IMG/VR virus record: IMGVR_UViG_3300032605_001371
Direction: 5' to 3' (one strand)
DNA: 20,000 nucleotides
Origin: an uncultured virus (IMG/VR IMGVR_UViG_3300032605_001371)
Lineage: Duplodnaviria; Heunggongvirae; Uroviricota; Caudoviricetes
The notes beneath the pieces were generated by a model. The model was not told the DNA's origin. It saw only the letters and a program-made list of their open reading frames with translations, and made no database searches. Both the position numbers and the translations under genes were made by a program. Positions 7,152-15,843 of the stretch are shown here, piece by piece. Every line of letters starts with the position of its first letter. The stretch's first letter is position 1.

Positions 7152-7409
7152 ATGTCTAGAGTATTCAACACTGACGCAAAGATTAAGTTGACCCAACTGG
7201 TTAACGAGGGCTTAGGTGTCCTACAAGAAATTGAAACTCTTAATGAAGGTCTAAACGACACCATTAAGGCAATCGCAGAAGAACTAGAAATAAAGCCAGC
7301 CATTCTTAAGAAGGCTATCAAGGTTGCACAGAAGCAGCGCCTCGCACAAACTAACGAGGAAAATGAGGAACTCAATACCATTTTGGAGACTGTTGGTCGA
7401 GCTAATTAA
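7152..7409 (+). CDS. Small dsDNA-binding protein (T4 DsbA / GapR-DUF2312-like)
   Basis: 85-aa helical protein (EIETLNEGLNDTIKAIAEELEIKPAILKKAIKVA) with strong RBS; stop overlaps the polB start (TAATG). Family call from recalled pattern only. Confidence 0.55.
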   Translation: MSRVFNTDAKIKLTQLVNEGLGVLQEIETLNEGLNDTIKAIAEELEIKPAILKKAIKVAQKQRLAQTNEENEELNTILETVGRAN

Positions 7410-9088
7410 TGGCATATGTCGATGCAGTATTAGATTCCAACGCAGATCGAATCCACGTTGTAGAACGTACTCCTGAAGGTAAACGTGCATACAAAGAGTT
7501 CCCTACGAACTACGTAATGTACTATGCTGATCCTAAAGGAAAGTATCGTTCTATTTACGGTGATCCGCTGTCTCGGTTCTCTACTCGTAAACGTAGCGAA
7601 TTCGAGAAGGAACGCAGAATACATAGTAACAAAAAACTATTTGAGAGCGACGTTAACGTAGTATTTAGGTGTTTGGCTGATAACTACCTTAATGCTGAAC
7701 CACCAAAGCTTCATACTTGCTTTTTCGACATTGAAGTGGACTTTGATCCTGAGCGAGGATTTAGTCCTACTAGTGATCCGTTCAATCCAGTAACTGCAAT
7801 CTCAATGTATCTAGATTGGCTTGATCAACTGATTACGTTGGTCATGCCACCTAAGCACATGACAGATGAAACTGCGCAAGAGTTAACTAAAGATTTTCCA
7901 AACTGCTTTCTGTTTCGTTCTGAAATAGAGATGTTTGAAACCTTCTTTGAGTTGATCGAAGATGCTGACATTCTAACTGGCTGGAACTCAGAGGGATACG
8001 ACATTCCGTATACGGTTAATCGCGTTACTAGAATCATGTCTAAAAACGATACTCGTAAGTTTTGTCTGCTGGGGAAACTCCCTAAGACTCGTACCTATGA
8101 ACGTTTCGGCAAGGAAGAAGAAACATACGATCTAGTTGGTAGAATTCATATGGACTACCTTCAACTGTATAAGAAGTACAACTACGAGTCTCGTCATAGT
8201 TATTCTCTTGATGCTATCGGTGAGATGGAAGTAGGTGAACGTAAAACTCAGTACGAAGGCAGTTTGGATCAGTTATACAATCAGGACTTTAAAACGTTCG
8301 TGGAGTATAACAGACAAGACACGATGCTTATGGTTAAAATTCACAATAAGCTAAAGTTCCTTGATCTTGCTAACGCACTAGCACACGAGAATAGCGTACT
8401 TCTTCCGACAGTTATGGGTTCGGTGCAGATGATCGAAATGGCTATCTTCAATGAAGCTCACGCACGTGGAATGATCGTACCTAACAAGAAGCCCAAAGAA
8501 GATACTGGGTTTCCGGCAGCTGGTGCGTTTGTTGCTATTCCTAAACAAGGAATGCACGAATATCCTGGTGCAGTTGACATCAACTCTCTGTATCCGTCTG
8601 ACATTCGAGCGCTGAACATGTCTCCGGAAACCATCATAGGTCAAGTTCGTCAAACACTGACTGACCAATACATGCACGAAAAGAGCATGAGATTGGCTTC
8701 TGAAAAGAAGAACAAGAAGAAGAAAAAGTTCGGAGATGACAGCGAGGAAGAAGGCGTCATTGGTGCAATTCTGTGGGAAGGATTGTTTGGCTCAATTGAG
8801 TATACAGCAATCATGAATCAAGAACGCGGAACTACCCTTTGGATAGACTATGAAGATGGTAGAAGTGTACAAATGTCTGCTGCTGAAATTTGGAAGATGA
8901 TCTTCGACAGTAACAGACCATGGATCCTTTCAGCAAATGGTACCATCTTTACTTACGAAAAAGAAGGAGTGATTCCAGGACTACTTTCTCGGTGGTATAC
9001 TGAACGTAAAAAACTTCAGAAAAAACAATACGCAGTTAGAGAAATACTCTATGGTAAATCTTTACCTGATGATTTTTTTACCGATTGA
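7409..9088 (+). CDS. polB: Family B DNA polymerase, N-terminal part (3'-5' exonuclease, palm motif A, first fingers helix)
   Basis: ExoI FFDIEVD, ExoII GWNSEGYDIPY, ExoIII YNRQD, motif A VDINSLYPS…NMSPET, GVIPGLLSRWYTERKKLQK; ends before motif B. Confidence 0.93.
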   Translation: MAYVDAVLDSNADRIHVVERTPEGKRAYKEFPTNYVMYYADPKGKYRSIYGDPLSRFSTRKRSEFEKERRIHSNKKLFESDVNVVFRCLADNYLNAEPPKLHTCFFDIEVDFDPERGFSPTSDPFNPVTAISMYLDWLDQLITLVMPPKHMTDETAQELTKDFPNCFLFRSEIEMFETFFELIEDADILTGWNSEGYDIPYTVNRVTRIMSKNDTRKFCLLGKLPKTRTYERFGKEEETYDLVGRIHMDYLQLYKKYNYESRHSYSLDAIGEMEVGERKTQYEGSLDQLYNQDFKTFVEYNRQDTMLMVKIHNKLKFLDLANALAHENSVLLPTVMGSVQMIEMAIFNEAHARGMIVPNKKPKEDTGFPAAGAFVAIPKQGMHEYPGAVDINSLYPSDIRALNMSPETIIGQVRQTLTDQYMHEKSMRLASEKKNKKKKKFGDDSEEEGVIGAILWEGLFGSIEYTAIMNQERGTTLWIDYEDGRSVQMSAAEIWKMIFDSNRPWILSANGTIFTYEKEGVIPGLLSRWYTERKKLQKKQYAVREILYGKSLPDDFFTD

Positions 9089-9948
9089 ATCCTACTTTCC
9101 ATTATGCCATTAGTATGCGAAATGATTGCATCCTTGCTGCCGAAGATAAAGGAGAAATCAAGGTTAGTGTCTGATAAGCGCAATATTGTATGTCCGCTTG
9201 CCAATGCCACGTTATTTTTTATTAAATCTCGATTTATTTGTCTTTTAGATGTGTGCCAATATTCACCATCAACTTCTACTAGTAAATTTAGATTTGGTAA
9301 TAAGAAATCAAATAACCAACTACCCTTTTCAGTATGTATAGGATGCTGATGAATGTACAATATATCATTATTCTTGCAAAATTCAATAAACGACAATTCA
9401 ATAGAAGTATGTTTTTTAGGAGTATCGTTCTTAGACATGAATTCTACTCGTTTTTTACTCCTATTGCGTCGTTGGTTATCTGATAGATCAAGCTTTTTAC
9501 CCTTATTTCCGGAGCCGCCTAACCCAATGGTATTTCCTATCATTTTAGTAGACTGTTTGGCTCTTCTCTCCGCAGTCCACGGTTTCTGTTTCCATCCATT
9601 GGCTATTCTCTCTTCCATATTAATCTTGCTGACAACCTTCATGTATTCTTTATGTTCAGGTGTGTGGGTTCCCCAAGATACTCCGGTTCGTGCGGTTGAT
9701 AATTTTTGTTTATGTTCCTCTGTTTTTCGTTTACCAGTTAATGCGTTTCTTACTTTTTCTACACTAACTGGATCATGCATTGGGTTGTTATCTCTCGCGT
9801 GTTTTCCGTATGCATGCCTTAGCTCATCAGAAAATAAAACAGATCCTGGAAATTGCGCTAAGTATTCAGCCGTAGTTATATTGTGAGTTTTTAAATGACT
9901 ACTAGTCACTCGTTTCATTTCTTTGTTACAAATAGCACAATCCACCAT
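9049..9948 (-). CDS. Putative homing endonuclease: C2H2 zinc finger + NUMOD3-like repeats + DUF559/Vsr-like (EDxHD) nuclease
   Basis: CAIC…HLKTH finger; GKRKTEEHKQKLS, HTPEHKEYMK and WTAERRAKQS repeats; FDFLLPNLNLLVEVDGEYWH…RD nuclease motif; AAGGAG RBS on the minus strand (around 9957-9962). Confidence 0.85.
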   Translation of the reverse strand: MVDCAICNKEMKRVTSSHLKTHNITTAEYLAQFPGSVLFSDELRHAYGKHARDNNPMHDPVSVEKVRNALTGKRKTEEHKQKLSTARTGVSWGTHTPEHKEYMKVVSKINMEERIANGWKQKPWTAERRAKQSTKMIGNTIGLGGSGNKGKKLDLSDNQRRNRSKKRVEFMSKNDTPKKHTSIELSFIEFCKNNDILYIHQHPIHTEKGSWLFDFLLPNLNLLVEVDGEYWHTSKRQINRDLIKNNVALASGHTILRLSDTNLDFSFIFGSKDAIISHTNGIMESRIQSVKKSSGKDLP

Positions 9949-10002: not shown

Positions 10003-11247
10003 ATGAATCTAACGAAAATTATATTGGAATACGATACTAATAAAGTGAATGATTTTATTCAAAACAAAGACAAAATTGGTCTTGTTGAATACATAACTGG
10101 TTTCGGATTAGAAATACGAGACCGCTCCATTCATCCAATGGAAGCATATAAATCAGTTTGGGGGTTAGCAATGGAGTATTGGGACAAACGACAGTTAGTA
10201 AAAAAAATTCTCTTGAACTCTACATATGGATCCATTTTGAACGAATATTGCAGGTTTTATGATAAGCGGATCGGACAGTCAGTTACTTTGTCTGGTCGTC
10301 AAATTGTTAGGCACATGATGAGCCAGATCAATGAAATCATTGCAGGTGAATACACTCACGAAGGTGAGGCGATCATCTACGGTGATACTGACTCCTGCTA
10401 CTTCACTGCATATTCTATATTAAAAGATAGAATCGAACAAGGTGAAATAGAATGGAACAAGGAAGTTTGCATCGAACTGTACGACAACATCGCAGAGCAA
10501 ACTAACGCTAGCTTTCCTGCTTTCATGGAGAAAGCGTTCCATTGTCCCCGCAAGAACGGTGAGGTCATCAAAGCTGGTAGAGAATTGATCGGTGATCGTT
10601 CTATCTTTATTACAAAGAAGCGTTACGCAATCAACATCTTCGACAAAGAAGGTAAACGCAAGGATAAGGAAGGTAAATTAGGTGAAATCAAAGCTATGGG
10701 TCTAGACCTAAAGCGTGCAGATACACCTAAGTACGTTCAGGAATTTCTTATGGAAATTCTTTGTATGGTAATTCAAGAGGGTAAGGGCCGAGACGAAGTG
10801 ATCGAAAAGATCAAAGAGTTTAAAAGAAAGCTTTCAGAACAAGACAGTTGGACTAAGGGTTCACCTAAATCAGTTAATAATTTGACAAATCATACCATTA
10901 AGTATGAGAGAACCGGTAAGTGCAGTGTTGGTCATGCTAAGGCCGCCATTCACTACAATCAACTGCGTAAGATGAATAGCGACCAGTACAGCCAAAAAAT
11001 TGTCGACGGCATGAAGGTTGTGGTGTGTACACTAAAATCAAATCCCTTAGGTATTACTTCAATCGCATATCCCACCGATGAATTACGACTTCCAAAATGG
11101 TTCCTAGAACTACCATTCGATGATCTTGATATGGAACGTAAACTAGTGGATGAAAAGATAGACAACCTGTTAGGTGTGTTAGATTGGAAAATCAGATATG
11201 ACACCAATACTAATAGTACATTTAGTTCGTTGTTTACTTTCGGCTAA
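10003..11247 (+). CDS. polB: Family B DNA polymerase, C-terminal part (second fingers helix/motif B, motif C, thumb)
   Basis: WDKRQLVKKILLNSTYG (motif B KxxxNSxYG), IYGDTDS (motif C), KKRYA, KAMGLDLKRADTP; preceded by about 55 aa not recognisable as core polymerase. Confidence 0.93.
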   Translation: MNLTKIILEYDTNKVNDFIQNKDKIGLVEYITGFGLEIRDRSIHPMEAYKSVWGLAMEYWDKRQLVKKILLNSTYGSILNEYCRFYDKRIGQSVTLSGRQIVRHMMSQINEIIAGEYTHEGEAIIYGDTDSCYFTAYSILKDRIEQGEIEWNKEVCIELYDNIAEQTNASFPAFMEKAFHCPRKNGEVIKAGRELIGDRSIFITKKRYAINIFDKEGKRKDKEGKLGEIKAMGLDLKRADTPKYVQEFLMEILCMVIQEGKGRDEVIEKIKEFKRKLSEQDSWTKGSPKSVNNLTNHTIKYERTGKCSVGHAKAAIHYNQLRKMNSDQYSQKIVDGMKVVVCTLKSNPLGITSIAYPTDELRLPKWFLELPFDDLDMERKLVDEKIDNLLGVLDWKIRYDTNTNSTFSSLFTFG

Positions 11248-12054: not shown

Positions 12055-12423
12055 ATGATTAAGAGCATCTACGGAGGACAGGGAATTATTGTTAATGGAG
12101 GGATGCCTTCGGTACCCTACATCAACATGAGCAACCAGAGTGCTGGCATGGTAAGATTTAACGGCACCATCCAATCATTGGAAGTAGATGACGGTTCTAC
12201 TTGGTATGGTATTAATAATACTGCGAGCATGGAACTTTCTCCGGAAGTTGTATCGATCTTAGCTTGGGCAAGAAATAAACAGCAGGAAGAAAAAGACCTG
12301 CTTAATCTTTCTGAAACGAATGCTACTATCCGTGATCTGGTTGATCAAATTAAAGAAAAACAAAAACAAATTGAAGTCGTTAAGATATTGATTAAAGAAG
12401 AAGCTAAACTTGGAACAAATTAA
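12055..12423 (+). CDS. Hypothetical phage protein
   Basis: 122-aa ORF, translationally coupled on both sides; GMVRFNG…LEVDDGSTW motif and a C-terminal coiled coil. Confidence 0.65.
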   Translation: MIKSIYGGQGIIVNGGMPSVPYINMSNQSAGMVRFNGTIQSLEVDDGSTWYGINNTASMELSPEVVSILAWARNKQQEEKDLLNLSETNATIRDLVDQIKEKQKQIEVVKILIKEEAKLGTN

Positions 12424-13960
12424 CTTATCAAACGCACACCAGTCAGACTGGGCTTTGTTCCTGCCGGCAGTATCGTCATTTTTTATTGCTGGTTTAGGTA
12501 AACAACGTGAGGGTGAAAACTATTTTGATTCGGCTAGAATACCTGTTGGATTAAACGGTAATGTTGAAAAGCTAAATTTTCTGAACGAAAAAGAAGGACT
12601 GTACACTTACAAGTGGGGCCTGTATTCAGCTGGTCACGCTAATCTAGACATTACGAAGAATGATCACAATGAGAGCATCATTCGTAAGCGTGATCGTAAA
12701 AATACATTCATGTTAGGTGATTCTGGTGGATTCCAAATTCTAAAGTGTCAATGGCCCGCTGACTGGAAAGATCCTAACTGCCCGAAGGCCATGAAGAAAC
12801 GCACTGAGGTTTTGAAGTGGATGGACGAGTACATGGACTACGGTATGTGTCTCGACATTCCTTCACAGTCGCTTACTACATATCATATCAAAGACCCCAA
12901 AACGGGTAAGTCCGTGCACGGCATTCGAACCATTGAGGACGCTATTGCTGCTACTCATATTAACAATGAGTATTTCATTGCTAATCGTGATGGCCGTTGT
13001 AAGTTTCTAAACGTTCTACAAGGACGTAATCATAAACAGTCTGATGATTGGTATGAAGAAATGAAGAAGTATTGCGATCCTAATATTTACCCAGACAATC
13101 ATTTCAACGGATGGGCGTTTGGTGGTCAAACAAAGATCGACGTGCATCTGATGCTAAAGCGTATGGTTAACATCATTCATGATGGTCTGCTTGAGCCAGG
13201 CAAACATGATCTTATTCACTGTTTGGGTACTTCTATTCTAGAATACGCTATTTTGTTCACCGATATTCAAAGAGCAATACGCAAGTATCACAATCCAAAT
13301 TTGCAAATCACGTTTGATTGTGCGTCTCCATTCTACGCGGCCGCAAAGGGGCTTGCGTATAACAACAATACGTTTAGACATAACACGAAGTGGACGTATT
13401 CGATGGAAAAAACTGCTGAAAACAAAAATTATGCGACTGATACTCGCAAGTTCAAAGATGCGGTTTTGGAAGACGGCATCCATAAAGTGTTTAGTGATAG
13501 CCCTGTAACTGATATAATGATGGTTAAGGATCTCTGTTACAGAGGACCAGGCTTTCTGGGGCAACACGGCAAAGAAACGAAGACCAGCTGGGACACTCTT
13601 AGTTATACATTGATGCAAGCACATAACGTATATCGGCACATTTATGCGGTACAAGAAGCCAATCGTAAATCAGACTCGGGTATTAATCCTAAAATGGTTT
13701 TGGACAAGTTTGATGGTACCACATTCGGTGATCTTATTGATAAGATTTTTTCTCTAAAGGATCGTGAGAAAAGCCTTGCAATGATTGATCAATATAATCT
13801 ATTCTGGCAGCAGATGAAGGCCGGACAAGGGTTTTCCGGAAAAAGGGCTACAAATGCTCTTTCAAAGTTTGAGGAGTGTTTTACTATAGAAGAACCTGAT
13901 CCTGAAATCGAAGAAGTTGTTGAAGATAGCGATGACGCTATGTTAGAAGTTTTAGAATAG
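12410..13960 (+). CDS. dpdA: tRNA-guanine transglycosylase-fold protein, probable DNA 7-deazaguanine transglycosylase (DpdA-like)
   Basis: TGT motifs LGDSGGFQ, CLDIP, NVLQG, GWAFGG, IHCLG, TFDCAS; TTG start; clusters with folE/queD/queE. Confidence 0.7.
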   Translation: MEQINLSNAHQSDWALFLPAVSSFFIAGLGKQREGENYFDSARIPVGLNGNVEKLNFLNEKEGLYTYKWGLYSAGHANLDITKNDHNESIIRKRDRKNTFMLGDSGGFQILKCQWPADWKDPNCPKAMKKRTEVLKWMDEYMDYGMCLDIPSQSLTTYHIKDPKTGKSVHGIRTIEDAIAATHINNEYFIANRDGRCKFLNVLQGRNHKQSDDWYEEMKKYCDPNIYPDNHFNGWAFGGQTKIDVHLMLKRMVNIIHDGLLEPGKHDLIHCLGTSILEYAILFTDIQRAIRKYHNPNLQITFDCASPFYAAAKGLAYNNNTFRHNTKWTYSMEKTAENKNYATDTRKFKDAVLEDGIHKVFSDSPVTDIMMVKDLCYRGPGFLGQHGKETKTSWDTLSYTLMQAHNVYRHIYAVQEANRKSDSGINPKMVLDKFDGTTFGDLIDKIFSLKDREKSLAMIDQYNLFWQQMKAGQGFSGKRATNALSKFEECFTIEEPDPEIEEVVEDSDDAMLEVLE

Positions 13961-14228: not shown

Positions 14229-14675
14229 ATGAATACTAATAATTTACCCGAACAAGCTATTCAGGCTCTAGCCGATCAACGAAATAGAATCTCCGCAAGG
14301 GCAAAGCGTAAAGTGTGGGTGACCTTTCAACGCGAAGGCATTCATAGGTATCCTGCTGCTGAAGACGATCCCAACCTTAAGACTGGCGATGAATATGACG
14401 TTAGTTTTCTGGCACATCCTCACCGACATATCTTTCATTTTAAGGTGGCGATTGCGGTAGAGCATTCTAACCGAGCAATTGAATTTATACAATTCAAGCG
14501 TTGGTTGGAAAGTTTATACGGTAACGGCGTTTTGCAATTAGATTATAAATCTTGCGAAATGATAGCAGAAGATTTATATGAAGTTATTGCGTCTAAATAT
14601 CCTAACAGATATATTCAAATATCAGTGAGTGAAGACGGAGAAAATGGAGCAGAACTAACTTTTACCACAGCATAA
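14229..14675 (+). CDS. dpdL: QueD-paralogous T-fold protein, DpdL-like (putative 7-carboxy-7-deazaguanine decarboxylase)
   Basis: EGIHRYP…FLAHPHRHIFHFKV…IEFIQFK…SCEMIAE…ISVSEDGENGA. It has LxxxHRHxF in place of QueD's CxxxHGH, which I recall as the DpdL signature. Start placed at ATG 14229 rather than 14088. Confidence 0.65.
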   Translation: MNTNNLPEQAIQALADQRNRISARAKRKVWVTFQREGIHRYPAAEDDPNLKTGDEYDVSFLAHPHRHIFHFKVAIAVEHSNRAIEFIQFKRWLESLYGNGVLQLDYKSCEMIAEDLYEVIASKYPNRYIQISVSEDGENGAELTFTTA

Positions 14676-15382
14676 AGTTCTTCTTTAGTGATGGAACATT
14701 TTGTCCGTTTTGATCTATTATCGCTTTTTAATAACAGTTCTAGATTGGCAGCATGGCCTATAATTTCAGGTGGAATACTTTGTTTGAATCCCTCTGTAAT
14801 GCTAAATCGGTGATCTAGTTCGTATTCATTTCCTCTTTTTAGATTGTTCGGATTAATAATATGTTCTGCATACTTCCAGCTAGTATTAGTGAAATTAGTG
14901 ACTTGCTCTCTATATAATTCCCATTCTGTCTTGAGTTCTTTCGGTATAGAAATTCCACGTTCTATTTTTGTCAGTGTAGCTTTTTGATATGACTCAGGTG
15001 ATCTGTTTGATGCCCGCGATGATTGCATCTGTTTAGTATGAGAGGTATGTTTTTTATTGAACATCGGATTGCGTTCACCGGTATGTCCACCTCGTTGCTG
15101 CAAAGCATCAGAAATTTTCTTACCCTTTTCTTCTACCCAGTTAGGATCAGTATGCAGTTGCTGAAGTTTCTTATTCCCAACCTCACTCATCTTCTTCATG
15201 TGGACTCTCCTTTCCTCAGGAGTAATGTTTTTTTTCCTAGAAGATTCTGCCTTTGCGATGAAGCCCGGACATTGAGTAATTTTTTCTACACAACGGAAAA
15301 CCTTAGAATTTACACTTATCCATTTTGCTTGATTCCCGCAGTATACGCAAGTATAATTATGTTGCTCTTGAAGTTTAGGCAT
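14615..15382 (-). CDS. Putative HNH-type homing endonuclease with N-terminal Cys cluster and NUMOD3-like motif
   Basis: CVYC…C…C; GERNPMFNKKHTSHTKQMQS (NUMOD3-like); YELDHRFS…GHAANLELLLKSDNRSK (HNH-like DH…N…N). Confidence 0.8.
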   Translation of the reverse strand: MPKLQEQHNYTCVYCGNQAKWISVNSKVFRCVEKITQCPGFIAKAESSRKKNITPEERRVHMKKMSEVGNKKLQQLHTDPNWVEEKGKKISDALQQRGGHTGERNPMFNKKHTSHTKQMQSSRASNRSPESYQKATLTKIERGISIPKELKTEWELYREQVTNFTNTSWKYAEHIINPNNLKRGNEYELDHRFSITEGFKQSIPPEIIGHAANLELLLKSDNRSKRTKCSITKEELYAVVKVSSAPFSPSSLTDI

Positions 15383-15404
15383 AGTTCAATCTTTCTTTCA
15401 TCAT

Positions 15405-15413
15405 TGTATTTAT
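15405..15413 (-). promoter_or_regulatory. Putative late promoter (ATAAATACA) driving endonuclease 2
   Basis: + strand TGTATTTAT, 22 nt upstream of the minus-strand ATG at 15382. Confidence 0.6.
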
Positions 15414-15457
15414 GCCTAAACCTTTAAAGGAGACCAGTATGAGATAAAATTTTTAAC

Positions 15458-15553
15458 CCAAATCGTGATATTGAAATTACCGTTTCAGAAGACGGTGAAA
15501 ACGGTGCCACGATTTTCTATAATACTACTCAATCTCAACAACTCACCATCTAA
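15458..15553 (+). pseudogene. Orphaned second copy of the 3' end of the DpdL-like gene
   Basis: Translates PNRDIEITVSEDGENGATIFYNTTQSQQLTI*, versus PNRYIQISVSEDGENGAELTFTTA* at 14601-14675; no in-frame start codon (TGA at 15440). Confidence 0.85.
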
Positions 15554-15563
15554 GGAACTAAAA

Positions 15564-15797
15564 ATGGCAAAGCTCGACAATAAGTCTATCGTCAATCAAA
15601 TCTTTGAAGATTTGGAGAACTACCGTATTTTCTGTAGAGACTACGGTTATCGATATGATGAGCGAGATTTATATAACAACAAGAGCTATATCTATCGGCA
15701 GTACCAAAAGACAGTTGCAAGCAAACCTGCAAAGAATCAATGGGAAATCGATGCAGAGAAGTTTAAGGAACGTGAACTTCTTAATACCCGTCGATAA
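15564..15797 (+). CDS. Small hypothetical phage protein
   Basis: MAKLDNKSIVNQIFEDLENYRIFCRDYGYRYDERDLY…; AAGGA RBS at about 15552 supports ATG 15564 rather than 15465. Confidence 0.7.
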   Translation: MAKLDNKSIVNQIFEDLENYRIFCRDYGYRYDERDLYNNKSYIYRQYQKTVASKPAKNQWEIDAEKFKERELLNTRR

Positions 15798-15811: not shown

Positions 15812-15843
15812 GTAACGGGTGGTTAACCACCCGTTACCTTTTT
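15812..15843 (+). terminator. Intrinsic terminator
   Basis: Perfect palindrome GTAACGGGTGGTTAACCACCCGTTAC (15812-15837) followed by CTTTTT. Confidence 0.8.

Follow-up and report, generated by a model that had tools for sequence, protein, structure and literature searches.

The stretch of DNA analysed here is a 20,000-nucleotide (nt) sequence of an uncultured virus of the Caudoviricetes (IMG/VR record IMGVR_UViG_3300032605_001371), referred to as the window, and all positions without a locus name are those of this window. It contains dpdL, a gene for a DpdL-like protein, followed by a convergent nuclease gene and then by a second, displaced copy of the dpdL 3′ end. Judged from sequence comparisons, this locus is probably a free-standing homing endonuclease cassette, in which an immune 3′ part of dpdL is combined with a convergent HNH-type gene that has its own leader and late promoter. 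The examined part of the carrier genome is without an intact copy of the predicted recognition site, and co-conversion tracts are present, both as expected of intronless homing. The window belongs to a large phage genome, of which a 69.8 kb contig was examined; the metagenomes in which it is found, and which may be its source, are from lake, freshwater and biocathode samples. The features of the locus are as follows.

14229–14675, plus strand: dpdL-like gene, QueD fold, 148 amino acids; working allele, with foreign sequence that begins at about codon 79 or earlier and reaches the stop
14463–14486, plus strand: predicted recognition site (site A, dpdL codons 79–86), HSNRAIEF here against HNDRDIEF
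14550–14573, plus strand: site B (dpdL codons 108–115, SCEMxxDD), altered to SCEMIAED here; a rival target
14601–14675, plus strand: upstream (replacement) C-terminus, reading PNRYIQISVSEDGENGAELTFTTA and then a stop
14615–15382, minus strand: free-standing nuclease open reading frame (ORF), 255 amino acids, with a four-cysteine N-terminus, NUMOD3 and a C-terminal HNH-type motif
15383–15406, minus strand: nuclease leader and candidate operator; family-wide near-copy of dpdL codons 78–85, degenerate here (3-nt insertion)
15407–15413, minus strand: ATAAATA, a late-promoter-like motif; right edge of the element in relatives
15414–15457, plus strand: 44-nt spacer with a Shine-Dalgarno (SD)-like word, an ATG (15439) and a stop two codons on
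15458–15553, plus strand: downstream orphan C-terminus, reading PNRDIEITVSEDGENGATIFYNTTQSQQLTI and then a stop; 31 codons from P125, without a start of its own
15564–15797, plus strand: next conserved gene, 77 amino acids, with a terminator-like hairpin after it at 15812–15837

Two ends of dpdL around a convergent nuclease gene

The nuclease ORF and dpdL are arranged tail to tail and overlap by the last 61 nt of dpdL. Reading 14601–14675 and 15458–15553 confirmed the original prediction, made from the window alone, that two copies of the DpdL C-terminus flank the nuclease gene and that their codons differ: over the 17 codons common to both copies, only 34 of 51 nt are identical. The orphan scores 62 bits against a C-terminus hidden Markov model (HMM) made from relatives and matches a DNA HMM of nuclease-free alleles from codon 124 (E = 4e-17). 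Its TAA (15551–15553) lies within the TAAGGA preceding the ATG of the next gene at 15564, in agreement with the predicted overlap of the downstream stop with that gene's ribosome-binding site (RBS), and an SD-like word is found no more than 7 nt from the dpdL stop in 90 of 118 nuclease-free loci. Because four IMG/VR contigs share the identical nuclease and the same layout (such contigs are up to 314 kb long), and because a single contig covers 13900–16100 without differences in three of four DNA runs, which may themselves be the source of the window, the two-copy arrangement is not an assembly artefact.

For comparison, we fetched viral loci for DpdL and for the downstream glycosyltransferase (in each case the best 80 of 599) as well as for the nuclease (48, the best 80 of 280 and the best 80 of 120). 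The resulting sample comprises 195 distinct dpdL loci: 130 without an HNH match, 60 with this nuclease clade, a share biased by the choice of queries, and 5 with other HNH genes. Dereplication at 90% left 96 empty (nuclease-free) and 39 occupied alleles, or 95 and 40 after L206, which had first been counted as empty, was reclassed as occupied upon finding an internal deletion of its nuclease; these proportions follow the queries used, not nature. L098 was excluded as a false match to the N-terminal pattern, and L167, a divergent allele without nuclease, was omitted from the matrices and from the lineage, orphan and leader counts. The nuclease clade lies convergently after the dpdL end in 54 of 57 distinct loci, the other three being short contigs in which it could not be placed. 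It is thus an optional gene that keeps to one position next to a conserved gene, and decay states of the cassette occur as well, namely the deletion in L206 and an in-frame stop in L244.

To decide which copy is native, we compared both with the three nearest empty loci as measured by their flanking proteins (L203, L026 and L006, at 78–82%). The orphan is identical to these at 22, 22 and 21 of 23 amino acids, whereas the upstream copy agrees at 15, 15 and 14; the DNA identities are 40–45 of 51 nt for the orphan and 32–35 of 51 nt for the upstream copy. Among 118 empty loci, 109 are closer to the orphan, 5 are tied and 4 are closer to the upstream copy. These comparisons bear out the prediction that the downstream copy represents the native dpdL end. 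A check of whether nuclease-free relatives carry both copies found a second C-terminus in 2 of 123 loci without HNH match (at least 900 nt downstream), L040 and L360, and both of these hold another nuclease.

The replacement is not confined to the C-terminus. The DpdL core of the window is 68–73% identical to that of L203, L026 and L006, while for pairs of empty loci at similar flank identity the median is 80% and the 5th percentile 72%. Over codons 79–100, the window agrees with the three nearest empty loci at 14 of 22 positions, these agree with each other at 20–21, and occupied alleles of other lineages match the window at 18–19. Tracts shared between relatives start at codon 10–46 in most pairs and at about codon 81 in one. 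In the L231 cluster, L085/L088 and L205/L206, which amount to about three independent cases, dpdL and the nuclease are 98–100% identical, compared with 53–87% upstream of the change point; such near-identical tracts in different backgrounds support the earlier claim that the upstream end arrived with the nuclease element. L220 has both flanks and a 57-codon orphan of the standard lineage, but its working dpdL is of a divergent type (∼35–40% identical to that of the window) that also occurs in the backgrounds of L218 and L295. Based on the foreign codons 79–100, the shared tracts and the exchanged dpdL of L220, the mobile unit exceeds a 25-codon tail and comprises, besides the nuclease, the immune 3′ half of dpdL and in many cases almost the entire gene. 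The proposal that the element inserted near the PNR codons and brought a C-terminal duplicate alone is therefore not supported; PNR marks the right-hand junction, the position of which ranges in relatives from codon 95 to the final few codons. A divergent HLDREL type of dpdL occurs without nuclease match in L167 and L170, and may reflect conversion without inheritance, or loss.

What lies to the right of the promoter motif varies accordingly among relatives: remnants from codons 95–136, the last 4–8 codons with the RBS of the next gene, or none. Orphan lengths range from ∼4 to 57 codons, and an orphan scoring at least 12 bits is present in 20 of 60 occupied loci. L220, L305 and L292 have orphans starting at codons 95, 101 and 111, respectively, and none starts upstream of codon 95; L002, L214 and L244 carry the same element with different remnants. 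By sequence, the orphan is the leftover native 3′ end of the recipient's dpdL. L296 and L302 contain two stacked orphans with gene pieces between them, as expected if copying of donor DNA continued beyond the element and the copy was joined to the recipient arm afterwards, although a later deletion could also have given rise to the two remnants of L296. By analogy to these stacked remnants, the SD-like word and ATG in the spacer of the window may be left over from donor DNA that was copied along from beyond the element. The empty joint of 14600 to 15458 was not found in the contigs of the four DNA runs, but contigs drop rare variants, so that its absence from the population is not implied.

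The product of the host gene is DpdL-like according to its sequence, that is, a proposed 7-carboxy-7-deazaguanine (CDG) decarboxylase. It contains the motif LxxxHRHxF as LAHPHRHIF, its model (pLDDT 95) matches QueD/PTPS in Foldseek (E = 7e-6), and it is homologous to CGPG_00067 of Cellulophaga phage phiST, a protein named DpdL (tblastn E = 1e-8, 36%); a PDB sequence search with the DpdL alignment gave no significant match. The same motif, fold, homology and FolE/QueD/QueE-like neighbours are given for DpdL in bioRxiv 10.1101/2023.04.13.536721, where CDG decarboxylation is a prediction as well. The modification cluster of the window includes FolE and PTPS above the Pfam cut-off and a radical SAM protein below it. 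An intact C-terminus is probably needed, because residues 129–135 and 139–145 are predicted strands, and would be supplied by the replacement end, which retains both strands, lacks a 7-residue tail and completes the predicted fold.

The predicted target site and the nuclease leaders

The motif HNDRDI is intact in 67 of 95 empty alleles but in none of the 40 occupied ones, which show 12 different variants instead. D83 is present in 92 of 96 empty compared with 5 of 39 occupied alleles, its substitutes being A, E, S and C, and the occupied alleles that keep it have codon 80, 81 or 84 altered. At 12.0 bits, site A of the window scores lower than that of any empty allele, for which the minimum is 17.4 and the median 35.8, and no intact site A exists in the 69.8 kb contig of the window. 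L214 and L244 are 83–84% identical up to 13 nt before H79 and 94–100% identical per 100 nt over the following ∼1.2 kb; in this single pair the switch falls in an interval that reaches from 13 nt upstream to 5 nt downstream of the start of H79. Since the motif is depleted in occupied alleles, the nuclease leaders copy these codons and the L214/L244 tract starts there, we predict codons 79–85 (HNDRDIE, 14463–14483) as the recognition site. On a DpdL tree calculated without the target columns, 11 changes of occupancy are needed.

For the leader comparison, we used the 36 nt upstream of the nuclease ATG and one leader per 85% cluster, resulting in 30 clusters. These 30 leaders match dpdL codons 77–84 best among 800 stretches of dpdL on both strands, with a mean of 9.2 bits against –17.6 (standard deviation 1.1) for 200 shuffles. 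Leaders of three neighbouring genes (60 each) reach –16 to –19 bits in the same test, and the nuclease leaders themselves score –8.5 bits at site B and –3.1 at SEDGENG. The main difference between the leader consensus and the native site is at codon 83, which is also altered in occupied alleles. We regard the leader as a candidate I-TevI-type operator of the nuclease family, and likewise that of the L040 nuclease described below; the assignment is weak for the window's own leader. The nuclease leaders also share the conserved ATAAATA motif, which we take to be a late promoter, a label borrowed from T4. This motif occurs within 70 nt upstream of 15 of 73 contig ORFs, with 1.8% expected per upstream stretch. 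A σ70 scan returned 5 sites against 5.5 expected.

The nuclease itself carries a NUMOD3 match above the cut-off (22.5 bits), and a D190 H191 N213 N222 motif together with the four cysteines is invariant in 37 of 37 relatives. No LAGLIDADG or GIY-YIG match was obtained for the ORF. Foldseek and VIA-align searches with the full-length model (pTM 0.50) returned nothing significant: HNH domains were matched at E 0.4 and above, and 4h9d at Z 4.5 with a root-mean-square deviation of 4.0 over 69 aligned residues. Its Atlas neighbours include HNH clusters at 0.87–0.91. As these structural matches are weak, the HNH label rests on the motif. Among cultured phages, no record with a close full-length relative was found. 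Distant relatives of the catalytic part, annotated as hypothetical, are present in the T4-like phages IME540 (L368:1423–2106) and CHI14 (L369:1309–1992). The layout is different there, as they sit on the same strand between genes 18 and 19.

A second nuclease occupies the same antisense position after dpdL in L040, L042 and L356–L360, which represent one element. It is of the DUF723/T5orf172 type (L040:3357–4301) and is likewise accompanied by a replacement dpdL end and an orphan, here from codon 122, while the dpdL of this element retains HNDRDIEF. Its leader, upstream of the second methionine, copies dpdL codons 109–115 with 24 bits, a score reached by 0 of 100 shuffles at widths of 18 and 21 and by 4 of 100 at a width of 24. 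As read from these sequences, the T5orf172 element repeats this design separately, at another site in dpdL. In L028 (3704–4537), L168, L250, L251 and L274, more distantly related HNH genes with N-termini of the DUF723 type are located at least one gene downstream of dpdL, in either orientation.

Proposed mechanism and alternative explanations

In the mechanism that we propose, the nuclease would act during a mixed infection, recognise the native HNDRDIE codons (79–85) of a rival phage and cut or nick there. The left broken end would then invade the donor dpdL, the codons 80–84 of which are altered at the amino acid level, and copy through to the nuclease and its promoter. The right end would be rejoined either via homology, located in a remnant or in the next gene, or by an illegitimate joint with the resected arm of the recipient, leaving a native 3′ piece of variable length, 31 codons here, which would retain the RBS of the next gene. 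One-sided illegitimate repair of this kind is described for T4 homing (PMC2988022). Finally, by binding the look-alike of its target in its own leader, the nuclease might limit its own expression. The retained remnant could also be used as a homology arm, by analogy to a proposal made for the WHO elements of yeast (PMC7282813).

The original prediction differs from this scheme in its insertion point (PNR), in moving only a recoded C-terminus and in its target, SEDGENG-coding DNA or the junction just upstream. In its favor, orphan starts recur at codons 119–125 in several lineages, and RDIE at codons 127–130, which resembles site A, is found in 19 of 94 empty alleles against 1 of 40 occupied ones, the window's replacement reading RYIQ. 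We nevertheless consider this version unlikely and probably mistaken in both target and insertion point: 31 of 40 occupied alleles retain SEDGE, the SEDGENG codons survive intact in the native copy, the orphan, of the very same genome, the orphans of L220, L305 and L292 begin well upstream, the leaders are unlike this region, and the foreign sequence reaches back at least to codon 79. E135, D136 and E138 are invariant in empty and occupied alleles alike. A substrate in which 14600 is joined to 15458 should stay uncut under the favored model, because the immune codons 79–84 would still be present. The orphan start (PNRDIEI, 15455–15478) resembles NDRDIEF with 4.1 bits, among the best target-matrix scores of the contig. 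The same cassette might instead be aimed at site B, or at a target that has drifted elsewhere. SCEM[IML][SA]DD is present in 76 of 95 empty but only 1 of 40 occupied alleles, with complementary escapes by C109V or D114E/T/V/S, the orphan of L292 begins within this site at codon 111, and the window's leader is degenerate. Such a target is also improbable given the low score of the family's leaders at site B and the orphan of L220, which retains KSCEMIADD next to an intact nuclease. The T5orf172 nuclease, whose leader does copy site B, is another possible cause of the depletion.

Occupied alleles share co-occurring changes at codons 80, 83, 113, 114 and 145, of the 7 empty alleles without D114, 5 carry D80 or N81, and the modification cluster contains FolE, QueD and QueE-like genes. 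This would suit a nuclease that has become the domesticated partner of a DpdL subtype, for example by cutting DNA without the deazaguanine mark, with the residue changes reflecting enzyme chemistry. We hold this to be very unlikely, since the patchy distribution, the orphans, the tracts across lineages, the deletion and stop alleles and the leader copy rather suit a selfish site-specific enzyme. Splicing of 14601–15457 as an intron would restore the native end in frame, and one in-register U...G join (exon end at 14610) exists by chance. In the window, however, no Rfam family was matched at its gathering score (around the locus there were four matches, all weak and unrelated, with E values up to 10), the insert consists of the antisense ORF plus 75 nt and so leaves no room for a ribozyme, two-thirds of the occupied loci are without a recognisable long orphan and the upstream copy completes the fold, so that an intron, in agreement with the original prediction, is hardly credible. 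Similarly remote is the possibility that the two copies arose by local tandem duplication and that an unrelated nuclease gene inserted between them: PNR begins both, but they differ at a third of the shared nucleotides, the orphan is nearer to other phages than to its neighbor, and no nuclease-free locus has two copies.

Several observations weigh against homing from site A as we propose it. The best matches of the window's own leader within dpdL are not at site A, and its score is attained by 7–30 of 300 shuffles. The recurrence of junctions at codons 119–125 is left unexplained by the model, and for the catalytic domain of the nuclease no significant Pfam or PDB match was obtained. Regarding the tracts, 33 of the 36 occupied pairs with at least 96% identity come from one cluster, 7 of 192 control pairs of empty loci with less than 90% upstream identity also reach 96–97%, and the change points at codons 14–27 fall on a variable N-terminal helix; the empty alleles found come no nearer than ∼82% in the flanking proteins. 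Regarding the target, the depletion at site B is nearly as strong as that at site A, L223 is an occupied allele with HNDRDV, a form also seen in 7 empty alleles, and D114 (in site B), I143 and Y145 change in 8–10 of 12 occupied lineages, so that occupied alleles may share ancestry or a protein subtype. Only 3 phylogenetically independent pairs lie on supported branches (p = 0.5), too few for significance.

Related systems and neighboring genes

The closest counterparts are described outside phages. WHO elements at yeast FBA1 (PMC7282813; bioRxiv 10.64898/2026.08.13.744650) combine a nuclease gene with a resistant 3′ part of the host gene upstream, the old 3′ end displaced downstream, no splicing, and amino acid changes at the target near the active site. 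They encode LAGLIDADG-zinc finger enzymes, whereas HNH-type and T5orf172 enzymes are found here. Moreover, the phage nuclease is encoded on the opposite strand and overlaps the host stop, the fragment starts ∼40 codons past the predicted cut in the window and often has only a few codons, and no tandem clusters of nuclease genes were seen in the sampled loci. The mobile ORFs (mORFs) of fungal mitochondria (Allomyces atp6; Glomus atp6, atp9, cox2 and nad3) provide the counterpart of the gene hybrid: according to PMC3630166 and PMC4019555, a foreign C-terminus on the host gene is followed by a nuclease ORF and then by the native C-terminus, which is nearer to close relatives. Their LAGLIDADG or GIY-YIG ORFs are co-transcribed with the host gene, in contrast to the antisense nuclease with a promoter-like motif of its own described here, where the foreign part can also extend to nearly the whole gene. 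Intronless homing by the T4 seg/mob genes shares the cut hundreds of bp away in a neighboring conserved gene and the co-conversion, but the accessible text of PMC2988022 describes no orphaned duplicate of the target gene's end. The I-TevI operator discussed in the same text is likewise a target look-alike beside the late promoter of the nuclease; I-TevI is an intron-encoded GIY-YIG enzyme, while the enzymes here are free-standing and the copy, a predicted operator, lies between promoter and start codon. The phage element would therefore function like WHO elements and mORFs but is a member of neither, differing in enzyme family, strand and fragment start. In the literature searched, which includes few subscription papers, no nuclease-borne 3′-end replacement with an orphaned end was found for a phage.

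Tentatively, and with more doubt than for the cassette itself, dpdL of freshwater jumbo phages might be a WHO-like arms-race arena for at least two unrelated nuclease families, the HNH type at codons 79–85 and T5orf172 at codons 109–115. Each would display its target in its own leader, travel with an immune allele and force changes at near-invariant residues, and could swap the whole gene for a xenologue of only ∼35–40% identity. If true, the sequence of a DNA-modification enzyme of phages, and perhaps also its chemistry, would be moulded by selfish nucleases, two unrelated ones having converged on its gene. The cassette itself would extend to phages and HNH enzymes a third kind of homing element, which replaces a gene end without intron or intein and is known from yeast and fungal mitochondria. 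The target of a nuclease, pinned here by three sequence signals, can be read from its leader, giving a defined 24-bp prediction with natural sensitive and immune alleles. Furthermore, dpdL trees can decouple from phage trees, and gene-end fragments downstream are a record of past invasions.

The cassette may also carry cargo or serve as a landing place for other genes. Extra DNA of 130–1293 nt separates the dpdL stop from the nuclease in L069 (3371–4348), L282, L290, L294, L304 and L280, and contains four small ORFs in L069. Upstream of dpdL in the window, a conserved ORF of 516 amino acids (12410–13960) has neither a Pfam nor a PHROG match; judged by its position, it is presumably a DpdA transglycosylase. 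Elsewhere in the window, a family B DNA polymerase is encoded by two ORFs (7409–9088 and 10003–11247) that are split by a nuclease gene on the opposite strand (9049–9948). The latter is PD-(D/E)XK-like, with weak DUF559 and PvuRts1I-like matches, overlaps the end of the first polymerase part and has an ATAAATA motif 38 nt upstream, and the second polymerase part contains ∼55 residues ahead of the polymerase match.

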